Sequence record: NC_024793.1
Reading direction: 5' to 3' (one strand)
DNA: 46,847 nt
Source of the DNA: Escherichia phage vB_EcoS_AHP42
Shown here: in pieces, positions 35,672 through 46,341 of the stretch
Numbering within the stretch: position 1 is the first letter of the stretch
Layout of the letters: every line of letters begins with the position of its first letter
The notes under the pieces: generated by a model
The model's input: only the letters and a program-made list of their open reading frames with translations
Databases searched by the model: none
What the model was told of the DNA's origin: nothing
Program-made: the position numbers and the translations under genes

Positions 35672-36163
35672 ATGAATTGGAATGATTTTCTCGAATATAG
35701 AGATGGAAAGCTTTACTGGACAGATCCACACTCAACAAAATTTAAGCCAGGGGATGAGGCTGGATGTAGGCATCATAGGGGTTATCATTATATAAGGAGA
35801 TATAACACCGCGATGTCAAGGCATAGGATAGTATTGACAATGTTTAATGGAGAGATACCGGAAGGCATGGAGATTGATCACATAGACCATGACGTTGATA
35901 ATGATCGGATTGAAAACCTAAGAATGGTTACAAGGAGGCAGAACAATCAAAACAAAAAGCTAGATGAAAGAAATACTAGCGGACATGTTGGGGTTAGTTG
36001 GAACAAGAAGACAAACAAATGGAGAGCAATGATAGGTATAAAGGATAATGACGGGAAGCGGAAAACGGTATATGTTTATTATGGTGACTCTTTCGACGAC
36101 GCGGTATTGGCAAGGAAGAAAGCTGAAGCTGAATACTCATTTCATGAAAATCACGGAAAATAG
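35672..36163 (+). CDS. HNH homing endonuclease (AP2-type), paralog of 15979..16467
   Basis: MNWNDFLEYRDGKLYW N-terminus plus HNH core; strong GAGGAGG RBS; AGG/AGA-rich codon usage. Confidence 0.75.
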   Translation: MNWNDFLEYRDGKLYWTDPHSTKFKPGDEAGCRHHRGYHYIRRYNTAMSRHRIVLTMFNGEIPEGMEIDHIDHDVDNDRIENLRMVTRRQNNQNKKLDERNTSGHVGVSWNKKTNKWRAMIGIKDNDGKRKTVYVYYGDSFDDAVLARKKAEAEYSFHENHGK

Positions 36164-37609: not shown

Positions 37610-37995
37610 TTATTGCAATCACATTGCTGACCGGCTGCTCTGTTATGTCAGCTATTTCTGATTTATTACCGAGCAAGGATGGCATTGAAGCAACAGCGCA
37701 GGTTGGTGAGTCTAACCAGAAAACTGGCGTTGGATTATCCAACCAGACAGACAAATCTAGCTCAACAGAGAGCGATATGCGCAACTCAACTAACAGAGAT
37801 GTAGATTCATCAAGCCAGAAAAAGACTGCTGCTACGGGTCTCTCAGCTAACACAATAACAGCTGAAAAGATTGAAATTCATAGCACTGAAAACTCTGGGG
37901 TTGACTCATTAGTCTGGGGTGTTTTGGCTGGATTGGTTTCGGGCATGATAACTTACTTCGCTTTAAGATTTGCAAGAAATAAAAAAGGAGCCTAA
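37591..37995 (+). CDS. unimolecular spanin (T1 gp11-like)
   Basis: N-terminal lipobox LLTGC plus a C-terminal transmembrane segment VWGVLAGLVSGMITYFAL; overlaps the endolysin end. Confidence 0.6.
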   Translation: MRVGIIIIAITLLTGCSVMSAISDLLPSKDGIEATAQVGESNQKTGVGLSNQTDKSSSTESDMRNSTNRDVDSSSQKKTAATGLSANTITAEKIEIHSTENSGVDSLVWGVLAGLVSGMITYFALRFARNKKGA

Positions 37996-38010
37996 TGGCT
38001 CCTTTCTTTT
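37981..38010. terminator. bidirectional terminator at the end of the lysis cassette
   Basis: AGGAGCC-TAAT-GGCTCCT flanked by A-run and T-run; convergent genes on both sides. Confidence 0.7.
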
Positions 38011-38344
38011 ATGCGAACAATTGGTCGTCCGTCATTTCTTTTATGGTCATCATCTCATTAGTGTACTTATCGCTCTCACCCCCAAGGCATCTGAAGCTAA
38101 ATTCGAAAGGTCGCTTCGTGCTTCCTTTGCTCCAGTAACTGCCATTAACTCCATCGATGTAACCTTCAGTCATGCATCTTGCCAGAAACTCCTTTGACGC
38201 AGATGATGCAAAGTAACGCGCATTAACTCCAGCTGCCTTAGCCATTCTTTCACATTCTTTGTGGCGGTAAATGAATACCGCCAGGTGCTGCCTGTTAAAC
38301 TTTTCGTAGCTCTCGCAGAACTTGAACACATCAAGGATGAACAT
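38009..38344 (-). CDS. hypothetical protein
   Basis: 111 aa, last gene of a minus-strand unit, coupled to the 529-aa gene upstream. Confidence 0.45.
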   Translation of the reverse strand: MFILDVFKFCESYEKFNRQHLAVFIYRHKECERMAKAAGVNARYFASSASKEFLARCMTEGYIDGVNGSYWSKGSTKRPFEFSFRCLGGESDKYTNEMMTIKEMTDDQLFA

Positions 38345-38348
38345 TTAA

Positions 38349-39938
38349 TTACCCCAACAGCCGTGGATTGATATATACCTTGTCACCAATCAGGCAGGTA
38401 TAGTTTTTATCATCAAGCATCGGCAATAAGTGGTCTTTAATTTTAGCCATAACACCAGCCTGTGACTCGAAAGGTCGAACCTTACGCGCAGCTTCATAAA
38501 GTGAACGCAAACCCACAACTCCTTTACTGTTCTTGCCTTGCTTGATAAGGATATCAATTAACTTGTTCATCTCAGCGTTATCGCCAGCATGACCAGCTGC
38601 GTTAGCTGAGGATAAGTAAGTCTTACTAAGTTCTCCAAACATCAACAAAGCCTCTTGCATGGTTTCCAGTTCAATCTCCCTGGACTTCTGCGGACTACCG
38701 CCATTTGGGTTAAACCAGTTACGGATAGTGTGAAGAACTGCAGCAATGCGAATTACCTGTTTATCCATTTTACCTAACGCGCCGCGCAGCATTGTGTGTG
38801 AATACTTACCGCCATCTGCAAGGTGTGGCTCCATTTCCTGTCGAGCACGGTTAAGGTGCTTCATTGCTGAGTTACTAATAGTCAACTTAACATCTTGCTC
38901 ACTCATAATTTCATGAACAAGACGGAAGTAATCAGCCTTCAACGCTCCGTCAATCGGCTCATATGTTGACTCGCCATTATCATCGACGAAAACACGCTCA
39001 CCAAGGAATGACTTTTCACGCACAAGCAAGAAACGTTCGGATACACCAATACCGCGAGCACCAGCATTCATGATTGCGACTATTGTTTCATCCTGCGCAA
39101 TTACAGAAATACACCCCATAGCAATAAAGCTCATGTTGTTCTCTGCGTTCGCACGCGCGATAGATACGTTACCAGCATCCCAGGCCTTAAGCACCAGTTC
39201 GCTGTTTGTTTTCTTTGTTCCATCACCATAGGTCATGCCCAGCAGTGAGTTGACGCTCGTCGCCTCATCCGAGATGACAGCGAAGCTACCCTGACGATGG
39301 TTAATGCGTGCCAGACCTTCGGGAGTAGTATCAGATACAGGGAATACGATGTCGCAAAGTTTCTCGAGCTTATCTTCCAGCTCCTCCTTCTCCTCAAACA
39401 AACCAGCCATCTCAGAAGGCGACTTCTCCTGCTTCATTTCTTTAGCCAGAGCCGACAGCTTGGCCATAATCTTTTTACGGTCACGCTTACGGAGCTCGTT
39501 TAGTCGCTCAGTCTCTGCAATCATTGGAGCCAGAGACAGCGAGTTAATGGCAGATTTACCAGTTGATGGAGGCTGGCTGGTCACTACATACAGTGATGTT
39601 GGTTGTTGAGTTCCGTGATACTCAACCGTAAAGCGACCTAACATAGCTGCCGAGATGCAACCAAGGAAGTGCATATAAGCAGATGATTCAGGAAACTGAA
39701 CAGAACGAGCAATGTTGCTTGATAGTTTGCCAACTACATCATAGTCGTTACCAAGCGAGATAACAGGATACTTGTCGCCAGTAGAATCAATCTCAACCGG
39801 AGCTTTCCAGAATGATGCGCTCTGGCGATAACCGTTCGCATTAATAGCAACACGTAAAGGAGGTAATCCATCCTGAGCGGCAACAGCCATTACTTGTTCA
39901 ACAGTCAATTTGTCATCATTAAAATCAAACATTATCAT
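38349..39938 (-). CDS. large conserved hypothetical protein (possible replication-associated; full-length paralog of 43251..43811)
   Basis: 529 aa; its N-terminal about 40 aa and C-terminal about 55 aa are paralogous to the 186-aa protein at 43251..43811. Confidence 0.55.
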   Translation of the reverse strand: MIMFDFNDDKLTVEQVMAVAAQDGLPPLRVAINANGYRQSASFWKAPVEIDSTGDKYPVISLGNDYDVVGKLSSNIARSVQFPESSAYMHFLGCISAAMLGRFTVEYHGTQQPTSLYVVTSQPPSTGKSAINSLSLAPMIAETERLNELRKRDRKKIMAKLSALAKEMKQEKSPSEMAGLFEEKEELEDKLEKLCDIVFPVSDTTPEGLARINHRQGSFAVISDEATSVNSLLGMTYGDGTKKTNSELVLKAWDAGNVSIARANAENNMSFIAMGCISVIAQDETIVAIMNAGARGIGVSERFLLVREKSFLGERVFVDDNGESTYEPIDGALKADYFRLVHEIMSEQDVKLTISNSAMKHLNRARQEMEPHLADGGKYSHTMLRGALGKMDKQVIRIAAVLHTIRNWFNPNGGSPQKSREIELETMQEALLMFGELSKTYLSSANAAGHAGDNAEMNKLIDILIKQGKNSKGVVGLRSLYEAARKVRPFESQAGVMAKIKDHLLPMLDDKNYTCLIGDKVYINPRLLG

Positions 39939-39972
39939 CTCTCTCTAAATGCCCCCGAAGGGGCTTGATTAT

Positions 39973-40152
39973 TTACTTGATACGAACTTCAATCATCTGA
40001 CCTTTATGAGGAAGATACAGCTTTGCGCGACCTCTAATCATTACGGTGATGATATTCTCCTTAAGGTCAACGTGAAGTACTTTGCGGAACAGAGGCCCCA
40101 TTTTTACCATCATGCCAGGTTTGATGTTTTCGATAGTAGTCATGATATCCAT
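39973..40152 (-). CDS. hypothetical small protein (59 aa)
   Basis: Not in the track; first ORF after a palindrome-associated promoter, with RBS AAGGG; followed by a UUCG hairpin before the 529-aa gene. Confidence 0.4.
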   Translation of the reverse strand: MDIMTTIENIKPGMMVKMGPLFRKVLHVDLKENIITVMIRGRAKLYLPHKGQMIEVRIK

Positions 40153-40190
40153 TTTTTAGCCCTTTTAATTTATTTCGTTTCGATGAAGAG

Positions 40191-40235
40191 AATATATCAA
40201 TTTTTGTTGTTAAGTTCTTTAGCAAAAAGTGCTAT
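40191..40235 (-). promoter_or_regulatory. dyad-associated promoter (minus strand)
   Basis: Minus strand: TAGCAC-ttt-TTGCTA, 22 nt, TATATT, then TCTTCATCGAAACGAAA; drives 39973..40152 and downstream genes. Confidence 0.55.
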
Positions 40236-40351
40236 TAAAGACCAACCAGACATTTGCCAACTACAACAGCGATTGCGCCCATGAAGCCAAAGAAACCAAA
40301 CTTAATTACTTGTTCCATTACCGCATCAACTGCTTTAGAGATGTTTTTCAT
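40235..40351 (-). CDS. small membrane protein (38 aa)
   Basis: From the internal ATG at 40351 with RBS AAGGTG; C-terminal hydrophobic segment FGFFGFMGAIAVVVGKCLVGL; the longer track ORF lacks an RBS. Confidence 0.4.
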   Translation of the reverse strand: MKNISKAVDAVMEQVIKFGFFGFMGAIAVVVGKCLVGL

Positions 40352-40388
40352 TTTGTTCACCTTAGTTTTTGTCTTCTTGATGGAAACA

Positions 40389-40434
40389 AATATACCCGCC
40401 GAAGCGGGTACTGTCATTAGCAAAAAGTGCTATT
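40389..40434 (-). promoter_or_regulatory. dyad-associated promoter (minus strand) with embedded UUCG hairpin
   Basis: Minus strand: TAGCAC-ttt-TTGCTA, a spacer containing hairpin ACCCGC-TTCG-GCGGGT, then TATATT and TTCCATCAAG. Confidence 0.5.
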
Positions 40435-40639
40435 TTTTTAAGTGCCCTGGCGCATAGCATTTTCCATCCTTCTTATGCAAAACCCACCCAGCATATTTAA
40501 GTTGCCTTGCACAATCAGAAAAGTTCTCGCCCGCAGCGTCCGTATAGTGTGGCATAAAATAAGAACCATCATCATTTGACTCAGTTGAGCACTTCTTACA
40601 GTCGCAATAAACAGCGATGGAATAACCTGAAACAATCAT
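40430..40639 (-). CDS. small cysteine-rich protein
   Basis: 69 aa with a CDCKKC cluster plus further Cys/His residues, a possible zinc-binding protein. Confidence 0.45.
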   Translation of the reverse strand: MIVSGYSIAVYCDCKKCSTESNDDGSYFMPHYTDAAGENFSDCARQLKYAGWVLHKKDGKCYAPGHLKK

Positions 40640-40989
40640 TTGTAAGCCGCCTCAAACTTATACATCCCATAACCCACATCAAAGCCAACTTCTTCATCAC
40701 GCGTCAACTGCCAGCCCTCGCCGTCTTCATCATAAATATACCCAGCGTTACGACCAAGTGATGAAGTCATTGATACCTGGTAACGCTTACCCTTACTGAA
40801 ACTCTTCTTGAGTGGTGACTTGTGGTTCACGAAAGTGCAAAGCAAAGTCTTGGTCTTGACGTAACGACCCCGGCCAGTGAGATTTTGCCATTTACCATGA
40901 ATCTTGATTTGCTCAATACCATCTTTAACGCGAGCTTTAAACATATTGTTATCTGAGCTGATCCAGTTTTTAGTGATAGTGGTAGCCAT
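40636..40989 (-). CDS. hypothetical protein
   Basis: 117 aa, coupled to the downstream Cys-rich gene by overlap. Confidence 0.45.
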   Translation of the reverse strand: MATTITKNWISSDNNMFKARVKDGIEQIKIHGKWQNLTGRGRYVKTKTLLCTFVNHKSPLKKSFSKGKRYQVSMTSSLGRNAGYIYDEDGEGWQLTRDEEVGFDVGYGMYKFEAAYK

Positions 40990-41014
40990 TACTATTTTCC
41001 TTTTTGGTTTGTTA

Positions 41015-41317
41015 TTAGTTAGCGTTATGACGTTCGATATAGTCGCGGATTGTTTCGCCTACGCTTTTAGCGGCACCAAAAGTGCCCTTTGCGTGGCGTG
41101 AATCGCGGTACGTCTGGAAGAATTTACGAGCGATGTTTGCGAACATTGAACCAGTCACGCGAGCATCACCGAAATTTGTTTCGATAGCGTTGCTAATGCC
41201 ATCCTTGAACTCATTTTCAGTCATGAACATCTCTGCCATGCCAGCAGTCTCGAAAAGGTTAGCTAATTCATTCATGTTGTTATGGTCTTCGGCTGTAAAC
41301 AGGTTCATGTTAATCAT
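41015..41317 (-). CDS. hypothetical protein
   Basis: 100 aa downstream of a minus-strand palindrome-associated promoter. Confidence 0.45.
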   Translation of the reverse strand: MINMNLFTAEDHNNMNELANLFETAGMAEMFMTENEFKDGISNAIETNFGDARVTGSMFANIARKFFQTYRDSRHAKGTFGAAKSVGETIRDYIERHNAN

Positions 41318-41351
41318 CTTCGTGATTCCTTAGTTTCGTTTCGATGAGATG

Positions 41352-41395
41352 AATATACAATAAAAGCCCCGAAGGGCTTTAGCAATTCGTGCTAT
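41352..41395 (-). promoter_or_regulatory. dyad-associated promoter (minus strand) with embedded hairpin
   Basis: Minus strand: TAGCAC-gaa-TTGCTA, a spacer containing AGCCC-TTCG-GGGCT, then TGtATATT and CATCTCATCGAAACGAAAC. Confidence 0.5.
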
Positions 41396-41544
41396 TTCTT
41401 TGCTGCTTTTGCAATTGCCTTCTGGACGATGTTGAAGCTCTCAATCAAATCTTCTTTGAAGTAGTCACCAACAGGCCAACCCTTACCGCTGTACTTGGCT
41501 ATGGTTTCTAGATCGTAATAGTTCAAGTCAGATGGCTTTAGCAT
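41392..41544 (-). CDS. hypothetical small protein (50 aa)
   Basis: Not in the track; RBS GAGGT; start abuts the upstream gene stop (TAAATG). Confidence 0.35.
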   Translation of the reverse strand: MLKPSDLNYYDLETIAKYSGKGWPVGDYFKEDLIESFNIVQKAIAKAAKK

Positions 41545-41784
41545 TTACTTAACCTCATCAAAAGTTGCAACACCAGGGATAAACATTCCAACCTTCCAGC
41601 CAGAGATAGCAATCCATCCAGAATCGTGCTTGTGCGGTCGCTCAGAGCCATTAATCACCCACTCATTCGGGATTGTTTTACCATTAATGATTAGAGGCTC
41701 AGCGTCGTATACGGAGCCTTTTATGAATGGTGTTAATACATTCTTATCCGTGCTTTGGATAACGTTGGTGCAGCGAATCTTCAT
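41545..41784 (-). CDS. hypothetical protein
   Basis: 79 aa, overlaps the upstream gene by 4 nt. Confidence 0.45.
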   Translation of the reverse strand: MKIRCTNVIQSTDKNVLTPFIKGSVYDAEPLIINGKTIPNEWVINGSERPHKHDSGWIAISGWKVGMFIPGVATFDEVK

Positions 41785-41999
41785 GCTACCACCTCAATTT
41801 CTTCATTACTAACAACAAACTTTTCACCTTGAAAGATTGCAAGAGTACCATCAACATATACATGATCCTTTAAACTCATCATGTAGAAGCCTTCAATCTC
41901 GTAAACTTCCACCTCCTCACCAATCTGATAGCCAAGTTCGGCAAGGCTCATTGAATCTTCGTCGTACCTAATTTCGTTGTTGATAATAATCGCTTTCAT
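41781..41999 (-). CDS. hypothetical protein
   Basis: 72 aa, first gene after the minus-strand promoter at 42028..42072; RBS GAGGAG. Confidence 0.45.
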   Translation of the reverse strand: MKAIIINNEIRYDEDSMSLAELGYQIGEEVEVYEIEGFYMMSLKDHVYVDGTLAIFQGEKFVVSNEEIEVVA

Positions 42000-42027
42000 G
42001 TTTCTTCTCCTCTCTGTTGATTAGCAA

Positions 42028-42072
42028 ACTATAGCCAGTCATGGTGGATTTGTCTTTAGCAAAAAGTGCTAT
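42028..42072 (-). promoter_or_regulatory. dyad-associated promoter (minus strand)
   Basis: Minus strand: TAGCAC-ttt-TTGCTA, 22 nt, TATAGT, then RBS GAGGAG for 41781..41999. Confidence 0.55.
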
Positions 42073-42345
42073 TCGTCAGATTTATGGATTGTTGCAGGCA
42101 TTGCGATGATTAGCATGACTATTACACATAAAGCAATATTTCATCGAGTGCAACAGGTTTATTGATTGTTGCCAGTTTGGCAATGATGGATGGATGGATT
42201 GAATGAAAGGAGGTCTGGATCAAATAGTTGGTTGGTTTTATCGCTCGCGGAGAGACTTCTTTTATATACGCGTAGTCCGCTGTCTACCGATTGTCGACCG
42301 TATCCACATTTACAATTTATACGCCTTGATATAATCCATATACAC

Positions 42346-42440
42346 TAAAATATCCTTATATATAAAGGACTTAGACTATTATTATTATTATATATAGTAT
42401 TATGTATATATAGCGTATCATCTGTACGCCACTATATAGG
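42346..42440. repeat. AT-rich repeat block B, homologous to 22651..22730
   Basis: TCCTTATATATAAAGGACTTAGACTATTATTATTATTATATAT...TGTATATATAGCGTA; flanked by TATACGC repeats, a (GATG)x3 run and the palindrome TTCCTACAcTGTAGGAA. Confidence 0.6.
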
Positions 42441-42630
42441 TTGGTTTGCTTAAATTTCTATTTTTATTCCTACACTGTAGGAATTGTACTACCTTGTAGG
42501 AAAATATAGGAGGATATAGCTAGAACCACCTCATCTATATGTAGACGCACGTAGACGCCTGTACACACCCAGCAACGATGCGGCATGCAGGGCAAAAAGC
42601 GTATCAATTTTAAAATAAACAAAAAATACA

Positions 42631-42659
42631 TTTATATACACGTAAATCTTTGCTATAGT
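42631..42659 (+). promoter_or_regulatory. putative early promoter without dyad (extended -10 TGcTATAGT, AT-rich UP-like region)
   Basis: TTTATA, 17 bp, TGC-TATAGT, followed by the conserved TTTCATCGAAACGAGG leader; AT-rich upstream; first promoter after the long noncoding region. Confidence 0.45.
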
Positions 42660-42708
42660 CATTTCATCGAAACGAGGCAACAAACAACAATCAACGAGAG
42701 GAATTATC

Positions 42709-43251
42709 ATGAGCAAAACGACCTTAGGTGAAGTAATTCGATTCATGGCTAAAAAGGCACTCCAGTCAGAAGATAAGGAGTTCAAGGTTCCAGTTCGAGA
42801 TATTTACCGACAAATTAGAGGTCATGATTACCCGGAAATGGAGACTGATGATAAAACCGGGGATATTATCAACCTTGGAGAGCGGAAGTTGAGTGAGTTA
42901 AAGAACTCATACATTCATAATACATTGTCACGAATGAGAGAGTTGCGTGAGGCTAAGTATATCGCCCGTTATCAATTCATCTGGATTGATGCGGATGGTG
43001 AAGATACCACGCCCCGCCAGTATGATGGCGATGGTGCTGATAAATACCTGCTAATCCATCTCACCGAGGGGGTTAAGGAGCCAAAAGCAAAACAAAGAGA
43101 GAAAGAAGAAAAGGAGCGGGCTGTTATTGAGAAGTTCAAATCTCGCTTGCTTAAGTTATCACCTAACGTACTGGATTTTGAAGGTGATGAGCTGACTGGC
43201 GCAGTTAAGGCTATCCGCATGTATCAAGAGATGATCAAGGAGTTTAACTAA
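42709..43251 (+). CDS. hypothetical early protein
   Basis: 180 aa, first gene after a long AT-rich regulatory region; promoter is extended -10 TGcTATAGT without the dyad. Confidence 0.5.
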   Translation: MSKTTLGEVIRFMAKKALQSEDKEFKVPVRDIYRQIRGHDYPEMETDDKTGDIINLGERKLSELKNSYIHNTLSRMRELREAKYIARYQFIWIDADGEDTTPRQYDGDGADKYLLIHLTEGVKEPKAKQREKEEKERAVIEKFKSRLLKLSPNVLDFEGDELTGAVKAIRMYQEMIKEFN

Positions 43252-43811
43252 TGTTTGATTTCGACGAAGATAAGTTAACTGATGACCAGGTGATGGAAGT
43301 CGCCAGGCAAGATAACCTGCCGCCACTTCGTGTGGCAATCAATACTAATGGATACCGCCAATCATTCAATTTCTGGCCCAGCGCCGAAGAGATGCTGTGC
43401 GTCAAGTTGAGCTACAAATACGGCGTAGTAGTGAGCAGGATTAGCCGCCAGGGCTGGAATGGAGTGGTTGGCATTCGATCTCTATACGAGGCAATCCGAA
43501 AGGTCCAGCCATTCGTCGGGCGCGAAGGGATTATGCATGACCTGACAAATAACATCATCCCAGAACTACAGGAGGCGGGAATTGTTTGCCTCATTGGCGA
43601 TAAGATTTATGTTCATCCGGCCCTGGTTGGGATGGATAAGGACGACGTGCAAAACTGGTGCAGCCAGTACCGATCCGACGCGCCACGCTCACACTACGTG
43701 CCACCGCAAACAACAATCCATGGCTATGATGCCGATGAGGTGGAGAAGGCCATACAGTTCTACCGGAAAGCGAAAGCTCTCCTGAATGGTGAATATAGCA
43801 CAAATTGCTAA
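43251..43811 (+). CDS. hypothetical protein, minimised paralog of the 529-aa protein
   Basis: N-terminus MFDFDEDKLTDDQVMEVARQDNLPPLRVAINTNGYRQS and C-terminal block GVVGIRSLYEAIRKVQPF...CLIGDKIYVHPALVG match the termini of 38349..39938; the central domain is absent. Confidence 0.55.
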   Translation: MFDFDEDKLTDDQVMEVARQDNLPPLRVAINTNGYRQSFNFWPSAEEMLCVKLSYKYGVVVSRISRQGWNGVVGIRSLYEAIRKVQPFVGREGIMHDLTNNIIPELQEAGIVCLIGDKIYVHPALVGMDKDDVQNWCSQYRSDAPRSHYVPPQTTIHGYDADEVEKAIQFYRKAKALLNGEYSTNC

Positions 43812-43838
43812 ACAATAAATTGGGTAGTCAGCTATGAT
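43796..43838 (+). promoter_or_regulatory. dyad-associated promoter
   Basis: TAGCAC-aaa-TTGCTA (codes the C-terminus of the upstream protein), 22 nt, TATGAT. Confidence 0.5.
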
Positions 43839-43868
43839 TACCCTATCAACAACAAAGAGGAAATAACC

Positions 43869-44099
43869 ATGAAAGCTGTAATTATTGAAGATTTCGCAGG
43901 CGCTCGCACAGAGGTGTCAACCTCAGTACATTACGAAGGCATCGTTAGTATTGATATCAACTTCGGTAACCATGGCGACGGATGTGCGCTTGCTCACTAT
44001 ACTGCCTACCAAGCGCGCAAACTGGCGGCGGCGCTTATTCAGGCGGCTGAGGGGATTGAGAATGGTAAGGGTTACACTGGTCGGCGTAGGAGCGAGTAA
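43869..44099 (+). CDS. hypothetical protein
   Basis: 76 aa with RBS AAGAGGAAATAACC-ATG, downstream of a palindrome-associated promoter. Confidence 0.45.
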   Translation: MKAVIIEDFAGARTEVSTSVHYEGIVSIDINFGNHGDGCALAHYTAYQARKLAAALIQAAEGIENGKGYTGRRRSE

Positions 44100-44149
44100 A
44101 TTCAGTATCATAATTGAAGCAAATGACAACTAAACGATAGGAAGCTAAC

Positions 44150-44383
44150 ATGATTACCATTAACCTTTCAGAAGAGCATGCTGCCGAGATTAGGGCTATA
44201 CTAATGCATTGCCTTAGCCGCAAGATGTTTAGCGCGTCAGAATCGCTTACAGAGGTTGTAAATCAGATTCGAAATCAGGAGTTTGAAGATATACTGCCGT
44301 GGGAAGAGGACTTGGCCTGGCTTGAGTACGAGCAGATTTGCACGGCACTATCAGGCTGCCAACTGGCTAGCCAATACAAGTGA
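44150..44383 (+). CDS. hypothetical protein
   Basis: 77 aa with RBS TAGGAAG. Confidence 0.45.
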   Translation: MITINLSEEHAAEIRAILMHCLSRKMFSASESLTEVVNQIRNQEFEDILPWEEDLAWLEYEQICTALSGCQLASQYK

Positions 44384-46265: not shown

Positions 46266-46341
46266 GTTCTGCTGGCGTAACAGGATAACGCAGAGACCTC
46301 CTAAGTCTCAGTTGCTGGTTCGAGTCCAGCGCAGAACGCCA
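46266..46341 (+). tRNA. tRNA-Arg (anticodon CCT, reads AGG)
   Basis: Hand-folded 76-nt cloverleaf: 7-bp acceptor stem GTTCTGC/GCAGAAC, U8, D-stem GCGT/ACGC with GG in the D-loop, anticodon stem GAGAC/GTCTC, loop CTCCTAA, T-stem GCTGG/CCAGC, T-loop TTCGAGT, discriminator G and encoded CCA. Confidence 0.85.

Follow-up and report, generated by a model that had tools for sequence, protein, structure and literature searches.

DUF3987 proteins have been classed by Kazlauskas et al. as superfamily 6 (SF6), MCM-related replicative helicases, which carry a winged helix-turn-helix (wHTH) domain at the C terminus and are usually associated with a primase (PMC4889955). One of them, a PriCT-DUF3987 protein, was found to unwind 5'-3' and to bind its primase-polymerase; ATP-dependent DNA unwinding is known biochemically only for this distant member (PMC11724360). 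We analysed a stretch of 46,847 nucleotides from Escherichia phage vB_EcoS_AHP42 (NC_024793.1), referred to as a whole as the window, in which a predicted DUF3987 helicase encoded at 38349..39938 is accompanied by a shorter paralogue of 186 aa encoded at 43251..43811. The paralogue, hereafter the short form, has kept both ends of the helicase and lost the motor between them. Its sequence conservation is that of a maintained gene, and it may act as a mimic of the helicase's docking modules.

Truncated paralogues with dominant-negative action, or microProteins, are exemplified by the Id proteins and plant LITTLE ZIPPER. To our knowledge, the concept has not been described for any phage replicative helicase. 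We likewise know of nothing on the loading of MCM-like (DUF3987) helicases in T1-like phages, which are thought to depend on the host polymerase. From its sequence, the window is a T1-like phage of the family Drexlerviridae, genus Rogunavirus, approximately 99% identical to Escherichia phage JK06. Megablast matched positions 38000-44200 to JK06 (98.8% identity), and further Rogunavirus matches were AHS24, AHP24, phiKP26 and Rogue1.

The short form retains both termini of the helicase

Both open reading frames (ORFs) were recovered where a sequence-only reading of the window had placed a 529-aa protein and its minimised paralogue. The helicase is encoded on the minus strand and the short form on the plus strand, and the two copies are therefore inverted. 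The proposed similarity is significant at both ends: BLASTP aligned helicase residues 3-50 with residues 1-48 of the short form (33 of 48 identical, 69%; E 4e-20) and helicase residues 466-529 with residues 66-127 (32 of 64, 50%; E 1e-19). Profile-profile alignment (hhalign) lengthened the C-terminal match to helicase 438-529 against short form 38-127, with a probability of 99.4%. Since this alignment reaches helicase residue 438, the missing part corresponds to residues 46-437 or thereabouts. The central domain is thus absent, as had been claimed, at a size of about 390 aa rather than the roughly 430 aa first estimated, and the lost part includes the entire Pfam DUF3987 domain (residues 83-432). 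The new C-terminal extension, put at 60 aa, measures 59 (residues 128-186). Taken together, the BLASTP and profile blocks resolve the short form into helicase residues 3 to about 45, helicase residues about 438-529 and 59 new residues.

The long protein is a predicted DUF3987/MCM-like (SF6) replicative helicase. A profile search of its central domain, which the sequence-only reading had suggested, identified Pfam DUF3987 (PF13148) at residues 83-432 (E 9e-43), with 147.3 bits where the gathering cut-off is 27, and the protein also matched PHROG 2373, 'DNA helicase' (E 2e-255). The AAA+ motor (38643..39692, minus strand) contains Walker A PPSTGKS and Walker B ISDE, the latter within VISDE; residues G127, K128, S129, S223 and E225 are invariant among 39 homologues. 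All structures considered here are AlphaFold2 (AF2) predictions. The helicase model (predicted local distance difference test, pLDDT, 89.5; predicted template modelling score, pTM, 0.87) has an MCM-like AAA+ fold followed by a C-terminal winged helix, and a search of the helicase sequence against PDB gave no match. The motor is preceded by the N module (residues 3-50 of the 529-aa ORF; 39789..39932, minus strand), made of a conserved MFDF..KL peptide and three short helices (13-23, 27-35 and 38-43). It is followed by the C module (residues 438-529; 38352..38627, minus strand), which holds the end of the lid helices and the winged helix (strand 474-476, helices 477-484 and 496-510, strands 514-517 and 520-523). 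Counted from the first ATG, the helicase has 529 aa. Translation likely starts at the second ATG, at 39932, giving 527 aa, because homologues are 527 aa long with an MFDF start and a GAGAG Shine-Dalgarno sequence is correctly spaced about 8 nt upstream of this codon. With this start, the helicase and the short form share MFDF as their first peptide.

The helicase of the JK06 record (NC_007291.1; locus L001, 3350-4941) is split into three overlapping ORFs, JK_52, JK_54 and JK_55. In the window, it is a single intact 529-aa ORF, 98-100% identical to these pieces, and the split is likely due to frameshift errors in the old record. The phage also encodes a separate primase, homologous to AHS24 gp37, a single-stranded DNA-binding protein and an SNF2-type helicase. 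The sole 'DNA polymerase' annotation in AHS24 is an ORF of approximately 150 aa among the head genes, and no replicative DNA polymerase is annotated in these phages.

The two genes are diverged at the DNA level, as had been noticed from the sequence. Nucleotide identity is 61% in the N module and 54-55% in the C module, and the codon is shared by only 13 of the 33 identical residues in the former and 10 of the 29 in the latter. The proportion of synonymous differences (pS) between the two genes of the window is 0.74-0.99, which is saturated, and when each short form was compared with its own genome's helicase by the Nei-Gojobori method, pS ranged from 0.66 to 1.0 in nine genomes. Saturation of synonymous sites indicates that the duplication is old and gives no sign of recent gene conversion. 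As it was seen in all nine genomes tested, it also supports the view that the paralogue is not an assembly artefact. The sequence-only reading had allowed for either an old duplication or an import. The former stands, and the latter is unneeded because no helicase termini match better than those from the Rogunavirus lineage to which the phage belongs.

Recent gene conversion with the helicase was also rejected on protein identity, N modules of short forms being at most 84% identical to any of 120 helicase clusters. Co-evolution with the helicase was rejected because the divergence of the short form is not parallel to that of the helicase. An origin of the extension from sequence past the helicase stop was discarded, the tblastn alignment through that stop being spurious, with stops and gaps. 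The tail helix at the end of the extension was compared by hhalign with helicase lid helix 423-436 and with the C-terminal helix of DUF7174, the product of the gene upstream, and neither was accepted as homologous (E 0.2 and 0.075, respectively; probability below 1%).

Modules, fold and charge of the short form

The short form (plus strand, as are all its modules) matched PHROG 7327 over its full length (E 7.6e-99; residues 1-181 on profile positions 1-179 of 179), a family of unassigned function that includes JK_46 of JK06, LA65_gp70 of AHS24 and bas03_0065 of JulesPiccard. It belongs to no Pfam, NCBIfam or PADLOC family. Searches for a DUF3987 domain or Walker motifs gave no Pfam match at E values up to 0.1 and found none in 38 family members; NCBIfam returned no match, and PADLOC and known anti-defence families only a chance-level one (E 0.037). 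The short form is, by its sequence, a helicase derivative and not a helicase, and it should be incapable of ATP binding, ATP hydrolysis or DNA unwinding.

The AF2 model, built from a 38-sequence alignment, is a single compact unit with pLDDT above 90 for residues 10-135, and around 50 at 140-160. The N module (residues 1-48; 43251..43394) consists of the MFDFDEDKL peptide and three helices and has an isoelectric point (pI) of 4.1. Helices are predicted in the N-terminal part at 11-21, 25-33 and 36-41, with a short one at 45-49 and a lid-like one at 55-67. The linker with its residual lid helix (residues 49-70; 43395..43460) is basic and fast-evolving and is homologous to the helicase lid at about 450-470; helicase-like versions of it occur in Opt-79 and at loci L012 and L014. 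In the winged helix (residues 71-127; 43461..43631), a strand at 72-74, helices at 75-82 and 94-108 and strands at 112-115 and 118-121 are predicted, so that residues 55-127 show the helix-strand-helix-helix-two-stranded wing topology of a predicted winged-helix fold. This module carries a net charge of -1, with a family mean of +0.8, where the winged helix of the helicase has +3; the short form as a whole is acidic, with a pI of 5.4. Helices predicted at 123-138 lead into the variable extension (residues 128-158; 43632..43724), which is partly disordered in the model, confidence being low at 140-160. The extension ends in a conserved amphipathic helix, predicted at 161-178. This tail helix (YDADEVEKAIQFYRKAKALLNGE...), together with the stop codon, occupies 43725..43811. 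It has no helicase counterpart and is kept in most of the in-frame micro derivatives described below; residues Y159, E163, V164 and R172 are invariant in the family alignment.

Conservation and purifying selection

A search of 5.8 billion proteins retrieved more than 120 clusters (90% identity) of 175-190 aa, ranging from 96% down to 48% identity, whose invariant positions fall mainly within three parts, namely N module, winged helix and tail (YDADEVEKAIEFYRKAKSLLNGE). When 1.84 billion representatives were searched exhaustively with a profile, only 50 proteins were retrieved: about ten full-length short-form clusters (50% identity), T1-like helicase clusters and fragments. The modules are therefore peculiar to this lineage of helicases. 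A conserved length and a three-part architecture persist in two subfamilies and at identities as low as 30-50%, and even the distant members P0245, P0248 and P0271 retain the N module, the winged helix and the tail. The modules of the family are mosaic between phages.

In nine genomes, the ratio of nonsynonymous to synonymous substitution rates (dN/dS) was 0.15-0.5 for the short gene and 0.02-0.05 for the helicase, and the short-form protein evolves approximately 5-10 times faster than the helicase of the same genomes. Pooled over 25 unsaturated pairs of 14 intact genes, dN/dS per module was 0.10 in the N peptide (residues 1-10), 0.27 in the N module (11-44), 0.38 in the linker (45-70), 0.25 in the winged helix (71-127), 0.58 in the extension (128-158) and 0.26 in the tail (159-180). 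The tail helix is thus constrained as strongly as the helicase-derived modules. An AAGGAG Shine-Dalgarno sequence is located 9 nt upstream of the gene. The sequence-only reading had named a recent, unconserved pseudogene fragment as the finding that would speak against it; conserved length and architecture and purifying selection show otherwise. Judged by this sequence conservation, the short form is a maintained functional gene under purifying selection and not debris.

Distribution, loss and minimised forms

A near full-length short form was detected by tblastn in 105 of the 760 phage records containing helicase termini. Relatives were to be checked for one or both forms; some carry both, and most carry the helicase without a near full-length short form. 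A census of the slot after the DUF7174 gene covered about 30 genomes plus database clusters, and the pair formed by DUF7174 and the short form was present in both Rogunavirinae and Braunvirinae. Intact genes (174-190 aa) were found in the window, JK06, AHS24, phiKP26, e4/1c, BEK1-1, RobRod40, FP, Opt-79 and others.

Other genomes carry disrupted or reduced versions. An in-frame stop shortly before the tail is present at loci L008 and L013, and early stops or frameshifts at L011 and L018. The L008 (8671-9192; YEG*HAS) and L013 (10001-10528; YE*EHPS) alleles belong to different lineages and are interrupted at nearly the same place, and in both, reading on in frame past the stop, the tail sequence is perfectly preserved. 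Either the two genes were truncated independently and very recently, or the tail is still produced in some way. In ACG-M12 (locus L052, 1025-1309), the slot holds a 94-aa protein with a diverged N-like part and a tail-like helix and no winged helix, which suggests, from its sequence, that an N-plus-tail protein can stay stable over long evolutionary time. Three in-frame micro forms have the N part joined to the tail (P0254, 82 aa; P0263, 72 aa; P0261, 51 aa). Rogue1 keeps a 28-aa ORF, MFDFSEDKLTDEQIEKLKRKKKYLLTGK, as a vestige of the short gene. A deletion from one DEQI motif to the other in an Opt-79-type allele (tail ...IDEQIERLKRKKKYLLTGK) accounts for its sequence. One RTP-like genome has a 19-aa stub, T145P1 and AN_ECEAS contain tail-only relics without a start codon, many N-only fragments occur in metagenomes, and in L030 and LF82-11 the short form is replaced by another ORF. 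The helicase works without the short form, given that the helicase region of Rogue1 is 97.7% identical to the window at the DNA level yet accompanied only by the 28-aa vestige. From this distribution of sequences, the short gene is accessory, conditionally dispensable and repeatedly lost.

A metagenomic protein of 114 aa, P0275, is a chimera whose first 60-70 or so residues are of helicase type and are joined to the C-terminal part of a homologue of a 117-aa ORF, which lies in the window at 40636..40989 on the minus strand. The chimera may be genuine or may have arisen in assembly.

The DUF7174 neighbour and the surrounding locus

The gene directly upstream of the short form (42709..43251, plus strand) encodes a 180-aa DUF7174 protein (Pfam PF23796, E 2e-44), and its stop overlaps the start of the short gene (TAATG). 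DUF7174 occupied this position in every locus examined that has a short form, with an overlap of 1 or 4 nt in almost every one; in the distant P0271 locus, the two genes are separated by a gap of about 220 nt. DUF7174 was found in 188 records. Between the window and AHS24, its amino-acid identity is 38%, whereas that of the helicase is 99% and that of the short form 97%. DUF7174 alleles have been swapped between near-identical phages (window 42709-43251; L003, 9486-10001), and the boundary of this recombination is the MFDF start of the short gene. A derivation of DUF7174 from the deleted helicase core was rejected (hhalign probability 0.4%). As to its function, we found no PDB relative, no NCBIfam or PADLOC match and nothing in literature searches.

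The gene order in annotated relatives runs from the lysis genes over a bidirectional terminator to a leftward operon of small genes, at whose end lie the 'DNA helicase' gene and a YdbL-like gene, and then over an AT-rich intergenic region of about 700 bp to a rightward operon. The latter consists of small genes and continues via a tRNA-Arg into the terminase genes, and the short-form gene is one of its small genes of unassigned function upstream of the terminase genes. The approximately 3.3 kb between the helicase and short-form genes consist of the leftward small-gene operon and the intergenic region.

The intergenic region (42000..42708, no strand) separates the leftward operon, with the helicase, from the rightward one, with DUF7174 and the short form, and is a candidate control, origin or packaging region on sequence features. 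It contains direct and inverted repeats (D1, D8, I5 and I14) and weak promoter-like sites, one of them at 42631-42659; promoter scans gave matches no better than chance expectation. The cut point of the linear Rogue1 record falls within the homologous intergenic region. A 34-nt direct repeat has copies 77 nt apart (42077/42154), paired CTAC..TGTAGGAA motifs make a palindrome at 42466-42502, and TATATA-rich palindromes are also present.

Further features were noted at some distance. The tRNA-Arg (anticodon CCT) lies at 46266-46341 in the small-gene operon upstream of the terminase genes, as it does in AHS24 and Rogue1. Where the rightward lysis and leftward helicase operons converge, there is a strong bidirectional terminator hairpin (37981-38008; AAAGGAGCC...GGCTCCTTT). 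In a 163-aa ORF at 35672-36163, an HNH-type motif (HIDHDVDNDRIENL...RRQNNQN) and, behind it, a C-terminal part resembling AP2 were recognised by eye only. This ORF, which lies between the exonuclease gene and the lysis module, is probably an inserted homing endonuclease.

Possible roles of the short form

The anatomy, origin and evolutionary behaviour of the short form are well supported by these sequences. It goes back to a duplication of the resident DUF3987 helicase gene in the ancestor shared by the T1-like phages of Rogunavirinae and Braunvirinae, after which one copy lost the whole AAA+ motor (helicase residues 46-437, approximately) through an in-frame deletion. The conserved N-terminal peptide with its three-helix module, the last lid helix and the winged helix remained, joined by the new 59-aa extension. 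In the rightward operon, which begins at the large divergent intergenic region, its gene comes second and is translationally coupled to DUF7174. The protein may mimic the non-catalytic docking surfaces of the helicase by occupying the contacts of the N peptide and module and of the winged helix. Its partner could be a replisome protein, from phage or host, or else the ring of the helicase or a sensor of the host, and the short form would act as a competitor, decoy or adaptor. We give this reading, an accessory non-catalytic mimic of the helicase docking modules, about an even chance. As the short form has no catalytic residues left, it can act only by binding, and docking mimicry is the most economical reading. 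What it keeps are the best conserved non-catalytic pieces of a ring helicase, namely an acidic-aromatic peptide at the N terminus, a small module of helices and the lid with the winged helix. Its acidic character and the lost positive charge of the winged helix make us lean towards a protein partner over DNA, and an accessory, fast-evolving distribution is as expected for a modulator or arms-race gene.

Several observations speak against docking mimicry. Helicases are 88-99% identical across genomes whose short forms share 40-98%, with no co-variation between the two, a pattern not obviously expected if a single fixed surface were strictly mimicked. As the 94-aa protein of ACG-M12 and the micro forms P0254, P0261 and P0263 keep the N part and the tail without a winged helix, this module is possibly not the key element. 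The many truncated alleles, in turn, show a gene that appears dispensable in the laboratory.

A specific form of mimicry, which we hold to be improbable though the best placed of the alternatives, is that the motor-less protein serves as an anti-defence decoy, titrating a host immune sensor or replisome factor, or as an inter-phage weapon that poisons the helicase rings of co-infecting phages. The phage's own replication would thereby be protected or that of a rival sabotaged. The protein would be made from the first operon beside the divergent control region, and the sensor would recognise the exposed termini of the helicase; the deletion forms (about 180, 94, 82, 72, 51 and 28 aa) would mark the minimal active elements, the N peptide and the tail helix. 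Replication proteins often trigger defence systems (10.1101/2022.08.27.505566). The accessory distribution, fast evolution, mosaic alleles and repeated loss fit such a role, as do the swapped alleles of the neighbouring DUF7174 and the place of the gene among small genes of unassigned function upstream of the terminase genes. Against it, the short form matched no PADLOC model or known anti-defence family. Nothing on this helicase or on its paralogue came out of literature searches on defence triggers; the 'helicase trigger' paper on Retron-Eco11 deals with UvsW/D10 and not with DUF3987. Somewhat more doubtful still, if a reasonable rival, is a DNA-binding regulator without a helicase partner, whose winged helix would recognise intergenic sites (promoters, origin or pac) and control early transcription or replication initiation. 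The gene adjoins the repeat-rich, AT-rich 700-bp region, and DNA binding is the role generally assumed for the wHTH at the C terminus of DUF3987 helicases (PMC4889955). However, the pI is 5.4, the net positive charge of the helicase winged helix is gone and the putative recognition helix (94-108) contains no basic residues. Winged-helix sequences also differ widely among phages, some lineages have the N module and the tail without this domain, and an essential regulator would not be lost this often.

We have little belief in the view that the gene is a decaying relic, a functionless duplicate en route to loss whose conservation reflects recent common ancestry only. The nonsense and frameshift alleles of L008, L011, L013 and L018, the vestiges of 19-28 aa in RTP-like phages and Rogue1, the tail-only remains in T145P1 and AN_ECEAS and the many metagenomic N-only fragments are what such decay would leave. 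Yet dN/dS is 0.15-0.3 at saturated dS between lineages, the three-part architecture and the length persist to 30-50% identity in both subfamilies, constraint sits in the modules and the tail and not in the linkers, the ribosome-binding site is strong and the fold prediction is confident. The selection data thus contradict a pure relic. We regard as very improbable an obligatory cofactor of the helicase, i.e. a loader or assembly chaperone that docks on it via the shared modules. An MCM-like phage helicase without a known loader might call for one, the winged helices of eukaryotic MCM proteins contact loading factors, and hetero-oligomerisation could run through the shared modules. The distribution nevertheless essentially excludes an obligatory loader, considering the near-identical helicase region of Rogue1 beside its 28-aa vestige and the 655 of 760 helicase-bearing phage records without a full-length short form.

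The short form bears on how the T1-like helicase couples to the host replisome. It can be seen as a natural 'domain dissection', in which two parts of the helicase, the peptide and module at the N terminus and the lid with the winged helix, would be separable and independently useful, and it offers a ready-made probe for finding helicase partners. If it is a decoy or competitor, a core replication protein would, in truncated form, serve the phage in regulation or counter-defence. Presence/absence pairs found in nature, such as AHS24 and JK06 versus Rogue1, together with the deletion series, make the question directly testable.

Comparison with known systems

The sequences of PHROG 7327 are public, with no annotation beyond hypothetical. 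Their relationship with the helicase goes unmentioned in the paper that described these phages (PMC4070988), and literature searches found no paper that describes it. In BFVD, Foldseek matched nothing beyond T1-like helicases and the family of the short form itself, and gave no comparable motor-less paralogue from other phage groups.

Compared with the DUF3987 (PF13148) SF6/MCM-like helicases, such as AgaPH and Cch of SCCmec, the short form is homologous to its own phage's member in its first 48 residues and, further on, to the last 92 residues of the helicase. It keeps the C-terminal winged helix typical of the family (PMC4889955). It differs in having no AAA+ core, no Walker A or B motif and no Pfam DUF3987 match, in the 59-aa tail without a helicase counterpart, in its 5-10 times faster evolution and in being dispensable. 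The likeness to the Orc1/Cdc6/ORC initiators and the C-terminal winged helix of MCM concerns the lid and winged-helix fold only, and not a demonstrated origin-binding function. Sequence identity is 8-16%, the short form is acidic and not basic, and the AAA+ ATPase that precedes the lid and winged helix in Orc1/Cdc6-type initiators is absent from it.

The microProteins are another point of comparison. Like them, the short form derives from a larger multidomain protein, keeps its putative non-catalytic interaction modules, lacks the functional domain, here the motor, and is encoded by a separate gene of the same genome. It differs in having gained a conserved tail and in forming a fixed gene pair with DUF7174. 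A truncated paralogue that keeps interaction modules is therefore known elsewhere; for a phage MCM-like helicase, and with a nested series of deletions, it appears to be new.

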